A DNA stretch of 64,000 nucleotides from Raillietiella orientalis (taxonomy: Eukaryota): NCBI GenBank assembly GCA_036172245.1, contig JAYWIR010000028.1, forward strand, positions 1,364,001-1,428,000, in the 5' to 3' direction. The notes beneath the pieces are model-generated. The model was not told where the DNA came from. It saw only the letters and a program-made list of their open reading frames with translations, and searched no databases. The position numbers and the translations under genes were made by a program. The first letter of the stretch is position 1; each line of letters opens with the position of its first letter. Below are positions 2,951 through 60,762 of this stretch, one piece after another.

Positions 2951-5900
2951 CTGATCGCATGAAGAATTGCACAAAGGAACCGAGGTCTTAGCTGAGTGCG
3001 TTGCCGGGCAATGTGCAGTGCGGGCATCATGGGAAAGGAAAAATTTTGGATGGATGGAGTAGGCTGCGTGGTCAACCGGTGATCTTCCTTCTTATTCTCC
3101 GTACTTTGTAGTGACTTCTTGCTTCCACCACCCTTTCAGAAGGTCATCTCCCAGCTTCCGTGATTGTGTCTCGCGCAAGCTCTCAGCTGATTCTGCGAAA
3201 CGGATGCTGTGCCTCCGTTTTCATTCTTCCACGGAGGAAGCCTAATCGTGCGATTGCTTTCGTGGGAGACAAGTCGTTGGCATGGAAGAAGCACTTATGT
3301 ACCATCCTCTTGCAGAGGAACATTCTGGTCTCAACGTCCTGCGTCGGGCAACAGCGCCCTGAGGAGAGTCAGCTCCTGGTCATCGAGGATTCTCCGATGA
3401 GTGGATTCGAACGTGCAGCCCGAGACTCAGTGGACTGCTTGTGAGAGCGGGAACCACCTGAAACAGCAGCCTACCTGAAGGGTGAGGCGCTTCCACGCAT
3501 CCTTCCGACCGTTGCGGACGAAAGCTCGATCTCTAGAAGATGTGGTGTACTCACCTGAAAGGACGAGTGGAAGCAGTAAAAGTCATCAGCAGAGATCCTC
3601 CTGGAATTCAGCACTACAACCGGACCTGCTGCATTGGGACAGGGGCTGGCCATCCCGCCCCTGTGAAACGTCGCTGTTCCCGGGAGAAAAAGAAGTGGAA
3701 GAAGGAGAGCAAAAAATTAGGATCCAACTCTCCGCTTTCTCGCCCCCCTTCCCCCAGGAAAGCGCTCGCTTCGGGGAGAGTCACCTTCTCTAAGGTCCCT
3801 TATATCCGAAGAACGAAGCTGGAGAAAGAAGCGAACGTTCCGCATCCGCGAGATTCGCGTTGAATGCATTGGCTAATTCTACGGACGGCGACCATCGCAT
3901 GACTTCGTCGCTTCTCTCTGGACGACTGGAAGGATCGGACAGAGATGATGGAACATCCTCATTCAGCATTTCCTGTGCACAAATAGGCGCGAGTAAAAAA
4001 AAAAAAAACTCTTTCGGCTGGTCTGTCTCTGTGACAAGGACTCCCGTTCTTTCTTCTTCCGGATGTCAGCGCCTCATCGAACGACTGGGGGGAAGGGCGA
4101 GGAACCGCTTGGAAGGAAGCGAGCGCGCGGTCTCATGTTCCTGTCTTCCCTGCCTTCTGGTCCTTTGAAGGAGAAAAGCAATTCCTCCCTTCCTTCTTTT
4201 ACCCTATGAAGAGTTGACCTATATTCTCGGCATCCGTCCGTTGTTTGCGTTTGGAACAGCCGCTGGTTTGTTTGTTGCTCGTGTTGCCAAGGTGCCATAT
4301 CTGGACGGAAGGAAAAAAAAGAACGACCGATCCCTCTCTGGTTTGCCTCGTTTTCCTCTCCTCTCCCTACACCTCCATAGCTCTGGACCCCAGCTGTGCT
4401 CGCGCGTCCGAATACCGACTCCTTCCTTTCTTCTTCCCCTTCAACATCTTCGAGAGACACGATTGTTTACTCGAACCCTCTGCGTTCGTTCCAGCGTGCT
4501 CAACGCAAGCTAAAATACATCATTTGTCCCTTTCTCACCCTCCGATGAACCCACGAGCCGTTCCCTTTCCTCAAGTTCCCAAATTGGTTCCAGCAAATCC
4601 ATCCATCGAGAGAGTCCTTGAGAGAGTTCGTTTCGTAGGAAACGGAACCGAACGGCTCTTCGTCAAACCCGACGGATTCTGTTGGCCTGGTAACCCTTAA
4701 AAAGAAGAATGCATCCTCCACGTTTGGGGGCGAGGAGCGAATTCGACCTTTACTAAATCAAAAGCACTTGCTACCTCCCATTTTTCAATACCTGGGGGTG
4801 AGACTCCGCACTGATTTCACTCTTTTTGGATCTCCTCTGGAGGAAGCGACCTCCCTGCGGATGTGCTCGAGATGCGTCTCCCGACCAAGGTAAGGCAGGT
4901 CAGTGTCCACAACCTACGGACTTGGAAGGGCCAAATGAGCTCTGTGCTTTCCGAGGCATGGAATGTCTCCGGCGAGAATCAAAAAAAAAAAAATAGCACC
5001 TCCGCCTTTTTCCTCCTTCCCCTCCCTCTTCAAAGGTACAAGCAAAGAAATACTTTGAACCTAAGGCACGGAACCAACCAACTTGCAGACATAGAACTGG
5101 CCATGTCTTCTTTCAGCAGCTTCTCGTCTATCAGCTACTCCCTCAACGGAACATGTTTGTAATCCAGAACTGGCGATGTTACACCCTGAGAGTTCCCTCT
5201 TGGCAGGGTGGGTCGCTTCGTCTTCCCTTATTTTCCTGCCTCTGCGGATTCGTTGCCTTGACAATGTGAGCAAGTCTCCATCTTGGCCGGTGTTTTATTT
5301 TTGCCCAAAGGTCTTTCTTAGGAGGAGTTTGAAAACATTTTCATCTTCCATACTCTCAGGAAGAACTGTTCCTGGAAGCATCAACCCTCAGTTTCTCTCC
5401 TCCGACGGTGTGCGGAGAAAACCATTTATCGGTAGTAGCAGACTTTCCCCTCTTCGGGATTCTATTTCTCCGCGTTGCCAAGGTTCTAAGCGCAGTTAAT
5501 CTGGGGTTTCGTCCATCAACTTCTTTCGGACCTTCAGTTATAATCTACAACCTTGGGTGGAATGGCTCAAGTCTTCCGTGGACGTCCTCGTCTTTATGTC
5601 AAGGTACATTACGCTCTCGTCGCTCGTGTGAAGGAGGAGGTTGCTCCCAGATGAATGGTTGCGTCCGACAATGGGGCAATGTCTCATCCTGAAGTGCCAC
5701 CTCGGTCGGACCTTCTCTTTCTCCAACAGGGACTTGGAGTCTTTATCCCGAATGCTGCTGCCCTCCTGAGAATACGGAGATAACGCTTTTCAGGGCACGA
5801 GAGGACAAGGAGGAATAAGGAAGGGAAGTATTTTTGTCCTTTTGCAGAATCCCAGCCTCCGTCCAAACGTTGATGCTGGACTCCGAAACGACGAGGTGAT

Positions 5901-18290: not shown

Positions 18291-18575
18291 ATGGAAGAAA
18301 CCCATGATGTATCCAGTAATGGAAGCCATATACTTCAAGAATTTTTAGAAAGTGATAGAACTGGTAGGAGGAATGCATTGCCTAACATTAATGAACACGA
18401 ATTCATAAATTCCAAATTAATATCAACTAGTTTACACAATCTTTGTCTTACAGGTAAACTACCATGCATTTGTATCAGAAAAAAATTGTAGTAAACTTAA
18501 TTTTTTAATGCAGATAAACCAGATAAATTAAAAAACGAGGTGAACAAGGAGTATTTCGGTGTAAAGAAAAAATGA
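18291..18575 (+). CDS. PKI: cAMP-dependent protein kinase inhibitor (PKI family), 74 aa, 2 coding exons
   Basis: Exons 18291-18453 and 18514-18575 (60-nt GT-AG intron, phase 1, in frame to TGA). FLESDRTGRRNALPNI matches the PKI pseudosubstrate (FxxSxRTGRRNA-hydrophobic). ISTSLHNLCL resembles the PKI NES. An acceptor just before the ATG (ttttccag, ~18284) implies an upstream non-coding exon. Confidence 0.9.
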
Positions 18576-18608
18576 AACATCCTTTTTTAGAGCACTGTAC
18601 ATTGAGCA

Positions 18609-18614
18609 TTTATT
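18609..18614 (-). terminator. Candidate polyadenylation signal (AATAAA) of smo
   Basis: First minus-strand AATAAA (plus-strand tttatt) downstream of the smo stop at 18769. Confidence 0.5.
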
Positions 18615-18721
18615 GGTTTTGTATACATGCATTCAATAGAATCTCAGGAACAAACTTTCACTGATGAGATATTGGTGATGCTTAATCTCAAAATTCCAAC
18701 TCGGAGCTGGTATGTAAAAGT

Positions 18722-18727
18722 AATAAA
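18722..18727 (+). terminator. Candidate polyadenylation signal (AATAAA) of PKI
   Basis: First plus-strand AATAAA after the PKI stop at 18575. Confidence 0.5.
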
Positions 18728-18768
18728 CTCAAAATAATACTTTGATATCATGACAGAACAGTAATGAT

Positions 18769-21700
18769 TTACTGAGACACCTGAGTAGATCTGCTCACCA
18801 GATGAGCTGGCACTAAGAGCTCCCAACTTGTCTGCACTGCACTTTCCATTTGCATCCTTGTCAAACTCACATTTGTTTGGACGGCAGAATTGCACATTTC
18901 ACTGTTTTTTTTAACATCCAAACTGCAACTCAGTCGTAGTTTGGAATCATCAGTTTTATTAAACTGATTCTGATCACCACCTTTCATCTTTCTGATCAAT
19001 GGGATTTCTTCAGGAAGCTTTTTATTTTGGGGGTTATCTGGAAGTCCTTTCACACTATATTTTGAGGAGCCGAAACTTTTTTTTCGTTGTGAAGAGAGAT
19101 CTTCTAGTGATTGTCCATTTGTTTTTAAAGAGAAAGGCAGAGGTAAATGAAGAAATGAAGATTTGGCTGAGATCTAAAGAGCTTTATGCATAAACTATAG
19201 GCTGTGCAACTTACCTGAGATCCAAAATTACTTTCCTGAGATGTGTTACTATCCTTCCAAAAGGAATGTGACTTTCCACGAGCTCTTTGTCGGCTTTTCA
19301 GTCTCTTAAGCCGATCCGACTTTGATGTAGCATAGCCATGATAGAGCATGGAAAGTCTGTCTGAATCAGAAAGATGAGCTGATAGTTGTGAATCCATAGA
19401 ATGACGTCTGGTAAGACGTGAATCGACGGACCATCTAACATTATGCATACAAAAAAAGTTGAAGTACCACAACTACCTTCGTTGACTAAAGCTCTGACTG
19501 AGAGAAGATTCTAAAGATCCTCTTCTCAGAAACAATTTATCGTTTCCAGTTATAGCATCACGCCTAGTGATAAAACGTGGTATGGCTGCTCCCCATGATG
19601 TGGAAAATTCTTCGGATGCACCAGACTCGATAGCAAAATTGAGTCCTTCCAACAGAATGCACACACAAAGTTTGAATATGTTGCTTACCAAGTGGATCAG
19701 ATTGGGAAGTAGGAAAAGAAATGGACATGCGACCATTATTCAGTTCATGGCGTTTTGCAAATGCTAATGAGATCATCTTGTGCTTTTTTAAATGGAAAGA
19801 TTTCTCCTGGACAACACCACATAACCTTCTACATTAAACTTTTTCAAAGCACTCGCAAATACTGGTAGTGCCTACCTTTTCAAGAAACGTCTCCAGCAGT
19901 GCCAACTTTCTTTATTCCACACCCAACTGCTCAAATTGATCCCAGCACCAAATATGGACAATAAGTGCAACTGCATCAGAAAAACTGAAGGGCGTGTCCG
20001 AAGCATACACTCTGGTAAATACGGATCTTGGTTGGTCTTGGCCAGACATCTGCATTATATCTGTTGGGAAAGGAAGACCTAAATGATATACCCACATGAG
20101 ATAATTATGCAGACTATGTTTCCATTCTGCTTCATGCAAGAATTCGTACACATGGCACACCAAAGTAATGGAAACAGCAGCCAACATAAATAAGGTAAAG
20201 ATCAACATTCGGATAAGAGTTTGTGTGAGTTTGGAGGTTATGGTTTTGGAAAGAATCAAGGAACTTTTCCATTTCAAATGAATTAAAGTCACCACACCTA
20301 TGCATTAGATCTTGAAAACAAAATCCCCTAGACTGTAATAGCTCACCACAAACTAAGTAAAATCCACCAATCCCACTTGCAATCAATACTGGTATCAATA
20401 CAAAACATATGCGTGCAGTCCAATTAAAATAGCCAACAAAACATATGCCTGTAACATGATTGCCATCGACTTCCGATAAAGATATGATAATGATAACTAA
20501 AATCAAGGGTGTTGTCCATGTCATCAGATGGAAGTGATTTGCACGATCGTGGATTCCTTGCTTAACTTTTCCTAGAAGACGGATAAAAATGATTACCAGA
20601 ACACACACAAGAAAAGTCTATTCAAGAAAAAGCAGATGAAAGTCACAACATACCAACACATGCACTTTCAAAATGGTTACTACAGGAGCAGCATTACCAA
20701 AACCAAGAGGTAGGAAAGTCAACTGGAAATTCACAGATGCTTAATGAAGTTCATGTAGTTCAGCTTTTGAAAGAAAGAACGGAATAGTTAATTAGCTCAT
20801 AATAACAACTCACCAATAGCTCTGAAGCTTAAATGCCAGGAGTACATTAAAATCACAAACCACATCAATCCAGCAATCATGAAGTAATAAATCAAAAAAA
20901 ACACTATTGTGCATGAAAAACTTTCTCCAGCTCTAGAATAATACAAACCGAAATGTCAGATTCACATTTAAACATGCTCGTTTTGCAAACTAATGAGTAT
21001 ATGAACTACATGGATATGTATGGAATCAACAAAACTATGAACACATAGTTTACCACTTTCCTAGAATCTATAATAAATAAAATGGCTAGCCTATCTACAA
21101 TGAAAGCTTAATACCGGCATACAAAAAGTATCAATCTAATAACCCACATGAGGACCTACTATACTTGAAAAGTCAATGTACTAACACTGGAAAATTAAAT
21201 ATCATAGTTTCAAATATTTAAAATTTCCGAACCTCACCATCTGACTTGTCGTCAGTGCTAGATTAAACAGTAATCACATTGAGACATTGAGCATAACACA
21301 TAGAACTTCCCAATATGCTGGTAGAAATAAAACTACAAATTTTCTGGGTTATAAGGATATCAACATCCATCACAATATAATAACAGAATTTATAACATAT
21401 GCTAACTTTGAACAAATGTATATGAGTATCTAAATGGTGATGAATATATGGAGGAGTACATTTCTAGAACTCAGAAAGCAAGGAATAATTTAGAATAAAT
21501 AGTGTATGTAAACTTTAGTTACCACACACTGATGACATAAACAAATCGATTATACACTTTCTTTATACACTTATTCCAACTCCTGATGAATAATTTTTTT
21601 TTTTCATTTCCTCTTCCAACACATCACCTTGAACCATGCATGCTAGAAATTGATTCTTATTTATCAAAAATGACTTCTTCCCAAAGTTCCAATACATTTT

Positions 21701-24700
21701 TCAATAACCACACTTAATATACAAAACATAACAATTATGAATACCATCAAACTAATTCACAGAAAATCTGAGGAGCACATATCACTTAATCTCAATTCGA
21801 AAAACATTTTCAAGCTTTTAACCTAAGTGCAAAAGTATGCTGAGAGTTCAATATATCCAGTAATAATGACAGAAAATAAGAAACACCACCGACTGGAATA
21901 CAAGCTTAGAGTTCAAAAGATCGAACTAAATTACAAATGAGAAAATGCAATCATGCAATTCACAAACTGAGAATCAATTTCCTACTGAAGCAAAATTAAA
22001 TGATTATACGAATTTGGAAATTAATAATCGAAATAAAAAACAAATTCAAATAAAGCAAACTACTCTTTAAACAAACGCACTGCAGTTAAAGAGTAATGAC
22101 CTGAAATGCACAGAACATGATCACTTGGTAAAACTGTACTCATTGGTTCACTGAAAAACAAACTCTTTCAATCCTACAATCAAACAGGTGATCAAAACAT
22201 TTTGAAGAACGTTAAAAATTAAATATCAGATAAGTTAATTCTAGCTTTTACACAGCAGGCATTAAAACAGGAAACATCCAAGCACAAATTTAAACAAAAC
22301 AATGAAAGAAACATTTTAAAATCCACTGTCTGCAATATGTCTCACAAAATATGAAATTAAGAACTAAGCTAATCTTTGTTGAGAAATTAAAAATGTTTGA
22401 TATTACTTGGAATCAAGATTTAAATTTTAAAGACAACTAGAAAAATGCATTTTAATTCAACAAACCCAGGTTCTGAACGCCGTAAGGTACCATCTTTCCT
22501 ACAAGTAATGTCATTCTTTGCATTGGGGAAAAACTGGGCCATCCAACCAACAGAAATCATAAAAAAACAAAAGTTTACATAAAAAACAATAACAGCTGGA
22601 TATTTTTTTGTGGATTTCCAATCTATGATAAAAGTTGCCTAAAATTAAGAAAACGATACAAACAATAAATTCCTAAATCAATTTCAATGTTCTTTAATGT
22701 TTCACAATCAAAATAAGCAATAATCAAGTCTCTCATTGTAATTACATAATATCATAACAAAGATAGACATCATTAAAACATACAAACAACCAACTATGAA
22801 TATCAATCTTTGATTACCATGTTGTAAAACATGTTTTACAAATTTGATAAATTTCTATTATTACTTTAAACTATGTTCTGTAACTTAAACTAATAGTACA
22901 AATGTACCTTTTCCTATCTCAGATCTGTTATTCCACAATATGGTAAAACATAAGACATTCATAAACCGATTTTATTTTTAGAAGTTCCACTATAGAACTT
23001 CAATAACGTTAAATGAAATAATGCAATAAAGGAAGTTTTGGAACTGCAATAGATAATGCAATCTTTCCAAAATAAGAAAACTTTGATAAATAAACTCGAC
23101 AATTTAACATGACTGAGTACAAAAACTTAACATTCGGGATCAATAATAAAAATTCTCATGCACTGAACAAATTCCAGATTTGTAAAATGAGACGCAATAT
23201 TCCGAATTATTTGTGATATCTCAGCATATTTGAACATGGCATAGGAAAAAGAGCTGACTGAATGCTTCCTTAAAAGAATGCAATCATTTAATTCAGGTAT
23301 GTGAGTATTTGAGCATTAATAAGAATTTCTTAAAGATTGCTGTTAATATCAGAACAAAAATTACGATTAAAGTTACTGAGAAAATTAATAACCTTATACA
23401 GGCATATTTTATAATCAAAAACAAAATCACAATGATTACTGCAATATTTACAGCCTCATTGAAAAAAAAAAACTTGGATACTGGAATGAAAACGGAATGA
23501 TTTCATCACTTTGCTGTTACTTATAGTACTAACATTTCCAATCGAAGCATTGTTCATTAGGCATTAAAACATGATTGCAACAAACAAACAGCAAATTACA
23601 GATTCAATATAATACTTCAGTTGAATTGATTTACATACCACAGCCAAAAAAGTTATGATTAAACAAACTCCACCAACGATGAAGATAAATTTATTTATTT
23701 TTTCTCGTTCTTCTGCAGTAAACAATAATGTTTCACATTGCAATCCACATCCTTCAATGTTATCATAAAAATTGATTTCATGCATAGTACTTTTAAAGGG
23801 AGGTTTACAAGTGGCTGTTGAATTGAATTTTAAATCTCTATACTCATTCTAAAAAAGTATAATTAAGTTAGCAACCCAATCAGAACTCCAGAGACATACT
23901 GTGATACCTTACAATGATGTGGAAAATTGCTTCCATTATTACAATGAAGGAAAGAGGGCCATCCACCTTCTTTCTCTACAATTCTGCATGGATTCTGAGC
24001 AAGTTTGCACATTTCATGTGATGGTAATTCGACCATACCGTTGTCACATTTAGGCATATATATTGAACACAATAATGGTTGAATATAGGCCCAACATTTT
24101 GGCACACTCTCAATTCCTCTCCATAAAAGCAATTTTTCCTTAAAATACAACACATATCAGCTCATCAATCACATTTTTCAATAGTTACATAATAAAGTTG
24201 TGGATGTAATTTTGGCAAAAATTCCTTGAAATATAATATCATAATATCAATGTAAAATTCAAGTCGATTCATTTATTTTCAAAACAAAAAAAAAGGCTGA
24301 ACAACTAATAATCAATAAAGCTGTCAAATGGAATGTATAACAGTTCAACAGATCATTAGCAATTCAAAACCCTAGAAAAATGAAAAATCCACTCTCAATT
24401 GAATCTTGTGCTTTTAATCTAAAAGATAAAGTATTTGAAAGTTTCACTAAACAACTGTGCTTTGTGGATGTAGTTCAAAAAACAGCAGGAAGCACTGGAA
24501 ACATATTTTAATATGCATAAAAAATTACAGACTTTACAAAATGAGAATGCACACTTCCTGAAACAGTTTTCAAATATTAAAATAACCAGACATCCAATAC
24601 TCACTCTCACTTCAATTTGATTGACTGAATCTGTTACTAAATCTAGAGATGTATAAGCAAAGGGCAATTTGGCTCCAAAACAATCAGAGAACTTCAGAGG

Positions 24701-24979
24701 TTCACAGTGAGCTTTCTTTTTGCATGATGCAGACAAATTGTTGACTGACATTATTATTGTTGCATTAGATGACATATTATAAATTTTATTGGAGAGCAAT
24801 TTCTGCATATTTTTTTTACTGCCATTCTCTGGGCTTATTTCTCTTTTGATAACATCTGAGTGTGCTTCATGACTTTTCAGTTTTTCATAAATATGAGTTA
24901 CATGTACATTAGTTTTAAGCATCATCACTTGTGAAAAATAAAACAAAAATACACATAACCTCAACATAACTTGCAACAT
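18769..24979 (-). CDS. smo: Smoothened (class F GPCR, Hedgehog pathway), 12 coding exons, ~880 aa
   Basis: Exons 24979-24605, 24138-23908, 23848-23639, 22638-22466, 20932-20814, 20571-20347, 20297-20096, 20049-19876, 19828-19689, 19645-19477, 19434-19215, 19173-18769. All are GT-AG, phase-compatible, and total 2643 nt. Motifs: signal peptide, CRD (PKCWAYIQPLLCSIYMPKC), GCGLQC, 7TM (EVDGNHVTGICFVGY; SSWVW), tail KKHKMISLAFAKR. The start may instead be the ATG at 24967. Confidence 0.97.
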
Positions 24980-36203: not shown

Positions 36204-38692
<2,489 letters not shown>

Positions 38693-58716: not shown

Positions 58717-59068
58717 GCAGTGAATGCGATGATACAATGTGCTGTTGAGCAACCCGTCTGCCGTTCTACTAGTCTTGGAGACTTTGTCTACCGTGCACCG
58801 GATAGCCAAAAGTAGAATAGTGGCGTTTGAATTTTCCCTAATTTTGATCCTCAGTGCTTCCCAGTTGCATGGTGGTTCTTCCAACACGCAGAGCCGAGAA
58901 GCTCCGTCGGTGAACGACTCCTGTGGCCCCACTTCCTACGATGTCTTTTTGGGAGGATCGTGCAATCCCACCACATGGAGGAAGGACATTGCTGTTCCCT
59001 TATTAGAACTGTGGCGTTTCACATATTTCAATCCGGTAATGATGCATTTCCAATATTTCACGAGTCGG

Positions 59069-59111
<43 letters not shown>
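56812..59111. repeat. Microsatellite cluster: (GT)n ~56812-56838, (TG)n ~58500-58526, (CT)n ~58677-58711, (TAT)n ~59070-59111
   Basis: Read directly. Further (TA)n tracts lie near 41100, 55780, 62000 and 63770, with many long homopolymers from 53 kb onward. Confidence 0.9.
58855..59035 (+). CDS. raw: Exon of a Raw-like protein (nucleoside 2-deoxyribosyltransferase-like domain); partial gene
   Basis: ctcag|...YDVFLGGSCNPTTWRKDIAVPLLELWRFTYFNP|gtaat matches the Drosophila Raw motif VFLGGSCNPTTWR...YNP. Phase-compatible upstream candidates are 58721-58811 (43-nt intron) or 56872-56927 (MTSDSFMAEG..., GTGAGT donor). The downstream exon was not found in the window. Confidence 0.85.
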
Positions 59112-59991
59112 GTCATTGTCATGATTATTGTTTTCAGTGCTTTGTTCACTAGCAATTAGGAATTATTCGTGACGAGTCTTAAAGAAAGTAACAACTGTCC
59201 CGAAAGCTGAAAATGCAAATCACTGCTTGCAAACCCCCAAAAGTCGACAAATGTTGCGAGTGTGCACGTTGGAAGTGTGTGTTTCAAGTTGTGCATAATG
59301 ACACAGCTCTATGCAAAAGCAAATTACGTGCTCACGCATCTCGGGCGAAGAAATGGCACGGGAAGAACTCAGCCAAAGTTCCGGTGTCTGCTGTGAAGAT
59401 CGGTCCAGCAGCATCCATCATAAATCCAGGGATAGGTTTAACCGCAGTGGTTTCGATCCGCAGGCTTAATTTATTACTACGTGGGCCGACGTCCCTTGCA
59501 GATACAGAATTGAATTCTTTTGATGATAAGTTCGTTATGTGGTAGCAAAAAAAAGCACCACAGTTATCGTGTTGTGGATTGCGATGCGATTCCGGCGCAT
59601 CTGTCGCGTGGTTTTTTTTTTTTTTTTTTCCTTTCTTTCTTTCTTTCACTCTTATGCTTTTCTTTCGTGCCGATCGCATACAAAAAGCATCCCTGTACAC
59701 GGAAATTTGGATCCTCGACGTATTTTAGCGTTTTCATTTGTAAATCAACATTTCGATTATGCTGTTTTCATTTGATGCGATAGAATTTGTAATGCTTTCC
59801 GTATCATTGGCATTCACAAATGTGGCATTGTGGTTTTTCGGTTCTCATGTGGCTGCCGTGTCTGTTTCGGAATGAAAACGTCTACGGAGTGTTACCGATG
59901 ACGTCGACCACTCGCAATTTTTTTTATGAATCGTTTACAGGTTGCGTGTTTGCAGTGAAATGCGGTCGTGCACGCAAACTGTACGATCTTA

Positions 59992-60762
59992 CAATTCCTT
60001 GCAGCACTTTCGTGCACGATCGCAGGAACAAGCCGTGCGGGTTCGTTAACTAGGGGGTCATCAAGGACGTGGTTTCCCGGTTGACACACCCGGATGCGCA
60101 TGGGTCCCCCCCCAGCTTGGAGGATGGTGGGTCGCTGCGAGACTTGCAAGCACGAGGTCCTTTTTCTGTCCTTTGTTCTTCCTTGCAATTCCTTGCAGCA
60201 CTTTCGTGCACGATCGCAGGAACAAGCCGTGCGGGTTCGTTAACTAGGGGGTCATCAAGGACGTGGTTTCCCGGTTGACACACCTGGATGCTCATGGGTC
60301 CCCCCCCAGCTTGGAGGATGGTGGGTCGCTGCGAGACTTGCAAGCACGAGGTCCTTTTTCTGTCCTTTGTTCTTCCTTGCAATTCCTTGCAGCACTTTCG
60401 TGCACGATCGCAGGAACAAGCCGTGCGGGTTCGTTAACTAGGGGGTCATCAAGGACGTGGTTTCCCGGTTGACACACCCGGATGCTCATGGGTCCCCCCC
60501 CAGCTTGGAGGATGGTGGGTCGCTGCGAGACTTGCAAGCACGAGGTCCTTTTTCTGTCCTTTGTTCTTCCTTGCAATTCCTTGCAGCACTTTCGTGCACG
60601 ATCGCAGGAACAAGCCGTGCGGGTTCGTTAACTAGGGGGTCATCAAGGACGTGGTTTCCCGGTTGACACACCCGGATGCGCATGGGTCTCCCCCCAGCTT
60701 GGAGGATGGTGGGTCGCTGCGAGACTTGCAAGCACGAGGTCCTTTTTCTGTCCTTTGTTCTT
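59992..60762. repeat. Tandem array of ~4 x 194-bp near-identical units
   Basis: Units start at 59992, 60186, 60380 and 60574 (caattccttgcagcactttcgtgcacg...). Differences are limited to a few substitutions around cacc[c/t]ggatgc[g/t]catgggtc. Confidence 0.97.

Follow-up and report, generated by a model that had tools for sequence, protein, structure and literature searches.

A PKI gene and smoothened arranged tail to tail in Raillietiella orientalis, with predicted overlap of their 3' untranslated regions

Hedgehog signalling is held back mainly by PKA. Vertebrate SMO is reported to act by blocking the PKA catalytic subunit (PKA-C) with a decoy that resembles PKI, the pseudosubstrate inhibitor of the kinase (bioRxiv 10.1101/2021.07.05.451193; PMC13186710). 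In the mouse protein the inhibition of PKA-C is exerted through a "SMO PKI motif" delineated by residues 615-638 (bioRxiv 10.1101/2021.07.05.451193), and the evolutionary conservation of the SMO-PKA-C mechanism has been named as an open question (PMC13186710). In Drosophila Smo, three clusters are described as targets of phosphorylation by PKA and CK1; the PKA sites are S667, S687, and S740, and two CK1 sites are positioned downstream of S687 (PMC4900676). Small soluble PKIs are represented by the vertebrate PKI-alpha, PKI-beta, and PKI-gamma proteins (PF02827) and, among the arthropods, by tick PKIB (LOC8025090), which is annotated, expressed, and employed as a cell marker (PMC13015885). With respect to gene arrangement, natural antisense transcripts in cis (cis-NATs) have been surveyed across ten species (PMC1524920), and overlapping 3' untranslated regions (3'UTRs) of convergent yeast genes have been reported to mediate interference (PMC3900390). 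Described here is a stretch of 64,000 nucleotides (nt) from Raillietiella orientalis (contig JAYWIR010000028.1), hereafter referred to as the window, in which a PKI gene on the + strand and a smoothened gene (smo) on the - strand lie tail to tail. All coordinates given below are window positions.

The stop codons of the two genes, as recomputed, are separated by 193 nt, and this short gap is predicted to contain both 3'UTRs. Fourteen variants of the poly(A) hexamer were scanned past both stops. The only AWTAAA hexamers between the stops are one AATAAA on each strand (Table 1). Because each gene's signal lies past that of the other, complementary 3'UTRs are predicted. Cleavage was assumed to occur 10-30 nt past the hexamer. 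Under this assumption, the smo transcript would end at ∼18579-18599 and the PKI transcript at ∼18737-18757, or at ∼18650-18670 if a weak AATAGA on the + strand were used. The resulting 3'UTR overlap would be ∼140-180 nt in the first case and ∼50-90 nt in the second, and neither end would enter the coding region of the other gene. The next signal on the + strand after 18722 is an ATTAAA at 18958, within the last Smo exon. On the - strand, none of the 14 hexamer variants occurs between 18768 and 18615, and thus an overlap would remain even with the weak AATAGA at 18635. Taken together, the positions of the signals make it likely that the PKI and smo transcripts overlap.

An earlier reading of the letters alone (the sequence-only reading) had placed the PKI stop at 18575 and the smo stop at 18769 with 193 nt between them, and the recomputation returned the same values. 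Its crossed order of hexamers, with the AATAAA of PKI at 18722 lying past that of smo at 18609-14, emerged likewise from the hexamer scan, and its naming of the two genes as PKI and smoothened agrees with the Pfam, PDB, and protein-collection matches presented below. The overlap of ∼130-150 nt that it had forecast stands as a prediction, for which the scan provides a range of about 50-180 nt.

On the basis of these data, the locus is best viewed, with a probability of roughly 65%, as two independent and intact genes forming an ordinary tail-to-tail pair, with a predicted 3'UTR overlap and a connection through PKA that is coincidental. The PKI and smo mRNAs would most likely end within the shared gap, with some 50-180 nt of their 3'UTRs complementary to each other. 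Such an arrangement would correspond to an ordinary 3' cis-NAT pair arising from the tight packing of 3' ends. As in the pairs described in yeast (PMC3900390) and in the ten-species survey (PMC1524920), the genes are convergent and on opposite strands, the gap is short enough for the ends to overlap, and the poly(A) signals are crossed. The locus differs from them in that its overlap is a prediction and in that the pair joins two proteins acting on PKA-C. An unlikely alternative is that the transcripts do not overlap, one or both genes employing non-canonical signals or terminating early. Hexamer prediction is imperfect, and the weak AATAGA lies 59 nt past the PKI stop; the Smo transcript, however, would have to end at a site that works independently of a hexamer and lies no more than ∼100 nt from the stop, given that no - strand variant of the 14 is encountered before 18615.

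The PKI open reading frame (ORF) begins with an ATG that is preceded by an in-frame stop. An acceptor-like TTTTCCAG is located immediately 5' of AAAACCATGG at exon 1, which suggests a further, non-coding exon upstream. The gene model consists of two exons with 74 codons, giving rise to a spliced product of 74 amino acids. When compared with Pfam, exon 1 matched PF02827 with 29.9 bits and an E value of 6.8e-07, the curated cut-off being 25, and the stop-to-stop ORF scored 29.2 bits in a sweep of the window, again above the cut-off. The pseudosubstrate FLESDRTGRRNAL was aligned to PKI(5-24) and to the PKI-alpha chains 1cmk_I and 1apm_I. The Phe and the RTGRRNA stretch are identical, and a Leu replaces the Ile at P+1. 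Note that the E values for these PDB chains are weak (0.48 and 0.96) because the PKI peptides are only 20-22 residues in length. Leucine-rich nuclear export signals (NESs) follow a characteristic hydrophobic pattern, and both this pattern and the spacing of the NES in PKI-alpha are matched by the decapeptide ISTSLHNLCL, a candidate NES that begins 15 residues past the P-site Ala. The identity of the gene is firm, and the encoded protein is a canonical small PKI, with a pseudosubstrate for PKA-C and an NES-like motif predicted from its sequence.

Vertebrate PKIs and tick PKIB (PF02827; LOC8025090, PMC13015885) share with the protein of the window a length of ∼75 amino acids and the signature F-x4-RTGRRNA-[IL]; the candidate NES of the window protein, a leucine-rich motif located ∼15-25 residues downstream, would be a further likeness. 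They differ from it in the C-terminal third, where the portion encoded by exon 2 displays no detectable similarity, and inhibition of PKA by the window protein is predicted from its sequence. A PKI stop at 18575 presupposes that the predicted 60-nt intron is spliced out. Were it retained, the frame would stop at 18489-18491, which would lengthen the 3'UTR of PKI and would not remove the predicted overlap.

It might be argued that the PKI ORF is a relic, or a chance ORF in the 3' flank of Smo, rather than a working gene. Two protein searches failed to produce a close homologue: a word-based search yielded no candidate, and HMMER run over 1.84 billion proteins returned a single PKI match at E values up to 0.001. 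In addition, no homology of exon 2 to the PF02827 profile was detected. Against this stand the PF02827 score above the curated cut-off, the intact state of all key pseudosubstrate residues, and three traits typical of the family, namely the spacing of the NES-like motif, the clean GT-AG intron, and the size of 74 amino acids. The ORF is furthermore the sole PKI match among 300 ORFs swept, and arthropod PKI genes are known to be annotated and expressed, as exemplified by tick PKIB (PMC13015885). That the ORF is not a working gene is accordingly a highly improbable explanation.

The single HMMER match (P0003) is a protein of 195 amino acids in which a PKI-like pseudosubstrate is repeated four times in tandem (GRTGRRNAM, SARRNAL, CQRRNAL, and SKRRSAV). 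It may, as judged from these repeats, function as a multivalent inhibitor of PKA-C.

The Smoothened gene was recognised by Pfam matches in five - strand ORFs, located at 19.9-24.2 kb, to either the Fz domain (PF01392) or the Frizzled/Smoothened seven-transmembrane domain (PF01534). The exon encoding the cysteine-rich domain (CRD) matched a SMO CRD chain in the PDB with an E value of 5e-32 versus 2.5e-4 for Frizzled-3 (FZD3), and Smoothened accounted for 15 of 16 matched PDB sequences, FZD3 being the sole Frizzled. For the transmembrane (TM) exon, the corresponding values were 4.5e-18 for SMO and 6.9e-11 for Frizzled-1 (FZD1). In a large protein collection, the best match was a spider "Smoothened like protein" (E value of 9.2e-27), followed by fish Smoothened. 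By these comparisons the exons are far closer to SMO than to Frizzled, and the identification of the gene as Smoothened is firm.

A tblastn search with Smoothened homologues places the gene from ∼24763 to 19341 on the - strand. Its 3' half was assembled exon by exon by hand and checked with a script. The six 3' exons, at 20297-20096, 20049-19876, 19828-19689, 19645-19477, 19434-19215, and 19173-18769, are separated by introns of 46, 47, 43, 42, and 41 nt, all of which are GT-AG, and no stop interrupts the frame before the TAA. The extreme C-terminus showed no conservation with any relative compared, either by tblastn or in an alignment of the tails, and the position of the Smo stop thus rests on the gene model. 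The sizes of the smo introns are strongly bimodal. Whereas the five 3'-most introns (19174-20095) measure 41-47 nt, those upstream are ∼1-1.5 kb, as for example between 22429 and 20937.

The C-terminal tail of Smo contains WGAAIPRFITRRDAI (19595-19551), a pseudosubstrate with a Trp at P-13, Arg residues at P-3 and P-2, an Ala at the P site, and an Ile at P+1. These hallmarks are exactly those reported for the mouse SMO PKI motif (bioRxiv 10.1101/2021.07.05.451193). Five tails were aligned, namely those of the window protein, the spider protein (P0004), the relative P0008, and two fish proteins. The RRxA[IV] sequence is present in all five, and the Trp at P-13 in four, with P0008 having a Phe instead. 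In this alignment, the motif of the window falls at the same place as that of the fish and spider tails. The motif belongs to the Smo protein proper, its conservation among orthologs has been reported (PMC13186710), and it is hence not new. A PDB search with the tail exon yielded chance matches only, with E values of 1.5 and above.

The tail also carries RRxS-type sites, namely RRGSLESSLS (19526-19497), RRHSMDSQLS (19409-19380), and a third candidate, RKKSFGSS (19086-19063). Where CK1 sites follow a PKA site, the expected pattern is RRxS with Ser residues at +3 and +6, and the first two sites conform to it. They resemble the Drosophila clusters built around S667, S687, and S740 as described in PMC4900676, and phosphorylation of the window sites is predicted from this resemblance. 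Only the second, RRHSMDSQLS, aligns with an RRxS site of a relative (RRRSFDSQLS in P0008), and the fish tails have nothing at that place and lack Drosophila-type clusters. The sequence-only reading had remarked that the arthropod Smo tail is a target of PKA, and the fly-like RRxS clusters are in keeping with that remark. As can be seen, a single Smo tail combines a vertebrate-type PKI pseudosubstrate, WGAAIPRFITRRDAI, with fly-like RRxS clusters, such that features for inhibiting PKA and for being phosphorylated by PKA occur together.

Table 1. Features of the convergent PKI and smo genes, in window positions.
Feature	Positions	Strand	Remarks
PKI coding exon 1	18291..18453	+	54 codons plus 1 nt; Pfam PF02827 match
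PKI pseudosubstrate FLESDRTGRRNAL	18342..18380	+	Phe (P-11), Arg (P-6, P-3, P-2), Ala (P site), Leu (P+1)
NES-like ISTSLHNLCL	18420..18449	+	residues 15-24 past P-site Ala; hydrophobic-x3-hydrophobic-x2-hydrophobic-x-hydrophobic; candidate, from sequence pattern
Predicted PKI intron	18454..18513	+	60 nt, GT-AG; gene model
PKI coding exon 2	18514..18575	+	in frame after intron; TGA 18573-18575; placed by splice signals only
Intergenic gap	18576..18768	.	predicted to contain both 3'UTRs, mutually antisense
First canonical AATAAA after Smo stop	18609..18614	-	154 nt downstream; after it, CA dinucleotides and a T-rich stretch, the latter overlying the PKI stop
Weak AATAGA, possible alternative PKI signal	18635..18640	+	59 nt past PKI stop
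First canonical AATAAA after PKI stop	18722..18727	+	146 nt downstream
Last Smo coding exon	18769..19173	-	TAA 18771-18769; RKKSFGSS 19086-19063; gene model
Smo tail exon with PKA-type RRxS cluster RRHSMDSQLS	19215..19434	-	cluster at 19409-19380; gene model; aligns to RRRSFDSQLS of P0008
Smo tail exon with WGAAIPRFITRRDAI and RRGSLESSLS	19477..19645	-	19595-19551 and 19526-19497; gene model, tail alignment
Three Smo exons: TM6, TM7, helix 8	19689..20297	-	20297-20096, 20049-19876, 19828-19689; two introns, 46 and 47 nt
Upstream Smo exons: CRD, linker, TM1-5	20345..24763	-	extents as matched by tblastn

The intergenic gap was examined for special features. A search against Rfam revealed no family at E values up to 1, and folding of the 193 nt was no better than that of shuffled sequences, with z values of -1.06 and 0.06 for the + and - strands, respectively. 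This ordinariness is counted in favour of the genes being an ordinary pair. AWTAAA hexamers number 218 in the window, both strands included, as compared with a shuffle mean of 178; none of 100 shuffles reached 218, and the density is ∼1.7 per kb per strand. By our own arithmetic, a crossed arrangement with one hexamer per strand within 193 nt would occur by chance in a few per cent of gaps. Such hexamers are required by any two genuine 3' ends, and their presence is not evidence of coupling.

The gene content of the surroundings was assessed with an ORF sweep covering 4-63.8 kb, from which short exons would escape. Stop-to-stop ORFs with a length of 65 amino acids or more numbered 342; the 39 starting at or before position 4000, in a GC-rich region, were dropped, and 300 of the remaining 303 were scanned, the three left out being at 63.6-64.0 kb. 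Matches to Pfam were obtained only for the PKI ORF, for four ORFs each of Smo and coronin, and for one exon with a sub-threshold Nuc_deoxyri_tr2 match. The window is thus gene poor, with four recognisable genes in ∼60 kb. The sequence-only reading had offered, as a fallback, chance adjacency in a compact genome. Chance has been retained here as the likeliest explanation, whereas the compactness does not hold for the window, in light of the small number of recognisable genes.

Several observations weigh against an ordinary pair of intact genes. Since the window is gene poor, the 193-nt spacing is not explained by local crowding. PKI exon 2, for which the profile comparison gave no homology, and the Smo stop are both placed by gene models alone. 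Finally, the PKI gene and smo both encode pseudosubstrates of PKA-C, as judged by sequence, and these lie ∼1.2 kb apart; the pairing is thereby less arbitrary than one with a random neighbour would be. What is new in this regard is solely that the Smo PKI motif lies close to a true PKI gene, the motif alone being already known. The idea that the two pseudosubstrates share an origin was considered and rejected, as BLASTP produced no alignment between them, beyond the motif, at E values up to 100.

These considerations raise the question of functional cis-antisense coupling, in which the overlapping 3' ends would make PKI and smo expression interdependent, by transcriptional interference, RNA duplex formation, or endogenous small interfering RNAs, and would thereby tune free PKA-C in Hedgehog-responsive cells. 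The sequence-only reading had proposed that such coupling may operate by a cis-antisense pair or by termination interference. In its favour, an overlap is predicted under every choice of hexamer, both products are PKA-C pseudosubstrates by sequence, and the gap is tight despite the gene-poor flanks. The reported phosphorylation of Drosophila Smo by PKA and CK1 (PMC4900676), the reported inhibition of PKA-C by the mouse SMO PKI motif, and the interference between convergent yeast 3'UTRs (PMC3900390) point in the same direction. The gap, however, is without special structure or a known RNA family. In addition, PKA has very many partners, and a PKA-related neighbour is, by our own reasoning, not very improbable. 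Functional coupling of PKI and smo is regarded as speculation and as improbable. That both genes act on PKA would most likely be a coincidence, and no dedicated coupling is assumed by default.

Comparisons beyond the window were also conducted. When metagenomes were scanned with the Smo TM exon, 198 stretches were matched and reduced to three weak loci with 44-46% identity, one of which (L003) is a bacterial contig. The GRRxA[ILVM] motif was absent from all three loci in any frame. A literature search revealed no paper, in the library searched, joining smoothened, PKI, and synteny. Among the matches listed for smoothened, PKI, pseudosubstrate, and PKA, the papers, judging by titles and first lines of abstracts, deal with the protein motif and not with gene adjacency. 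In human, SMO and the three PKI genes presumably reside on different chromosomes, and any linkage would thus be lineage-specific. A stronger version of coupling may be envisaged, in which PKI and smo constitute a conserved and selected cis-antisense pair. The soluble and the receptor-borne inhibitors of PKA-C, each transcribed into the 3'UTR of the other, would then be expressed in a mutually exclusive or stoichiometrically linked manner, which would fix the PKA threshold in Hedgehog-responsive cells of the lineage. This version is considered very unlikely.

With regard to the neighbourhood, the recognisable gene nearest to smo encodes a coronin (36396-38692, - strand) with a DUF1899 match of 113.6 bits, WD40 repeats, and a WD40_4 domain, and it lies ∼11 kb from the smo 5' end. 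At 58733-59149 on the + strand is the ORF with the sub-threshold Nuc_deoxyri_tr2 match (27.6 bits, the cut-off being 30), after which there is an (ATT)20 microsatellite at 59070-59129. A 194-bp tandem repeat with 4.0 copies that are 98% matching occupies 59988-60762. Open frames of 110-130 codons run through its copies on the - strand and show no Pfam match. The first 4000 nt of the window have a GC content of 57-68%, as compared with 29-40% around smo, and contain long open frames on both strands. These frames look compositional rather than coding.

In summary, the pair is regarded as real but ordinary, with a gene content that is suggestive. It represents a new example of a well-known arrangement and is, at present, a well-annotated curiosity. 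A true PKI gene abutting smo, with a Smo that bears both the decoy motif and fly-type clusters, would nevertheless provide a convenient place for studying soluble versus receptor-borne PKA decoys. Should the adjacency turn out to be conserved, the pair would be one of the rare instances in which overlapping transcripts link a signalling receptor with a modulator of its pathway.

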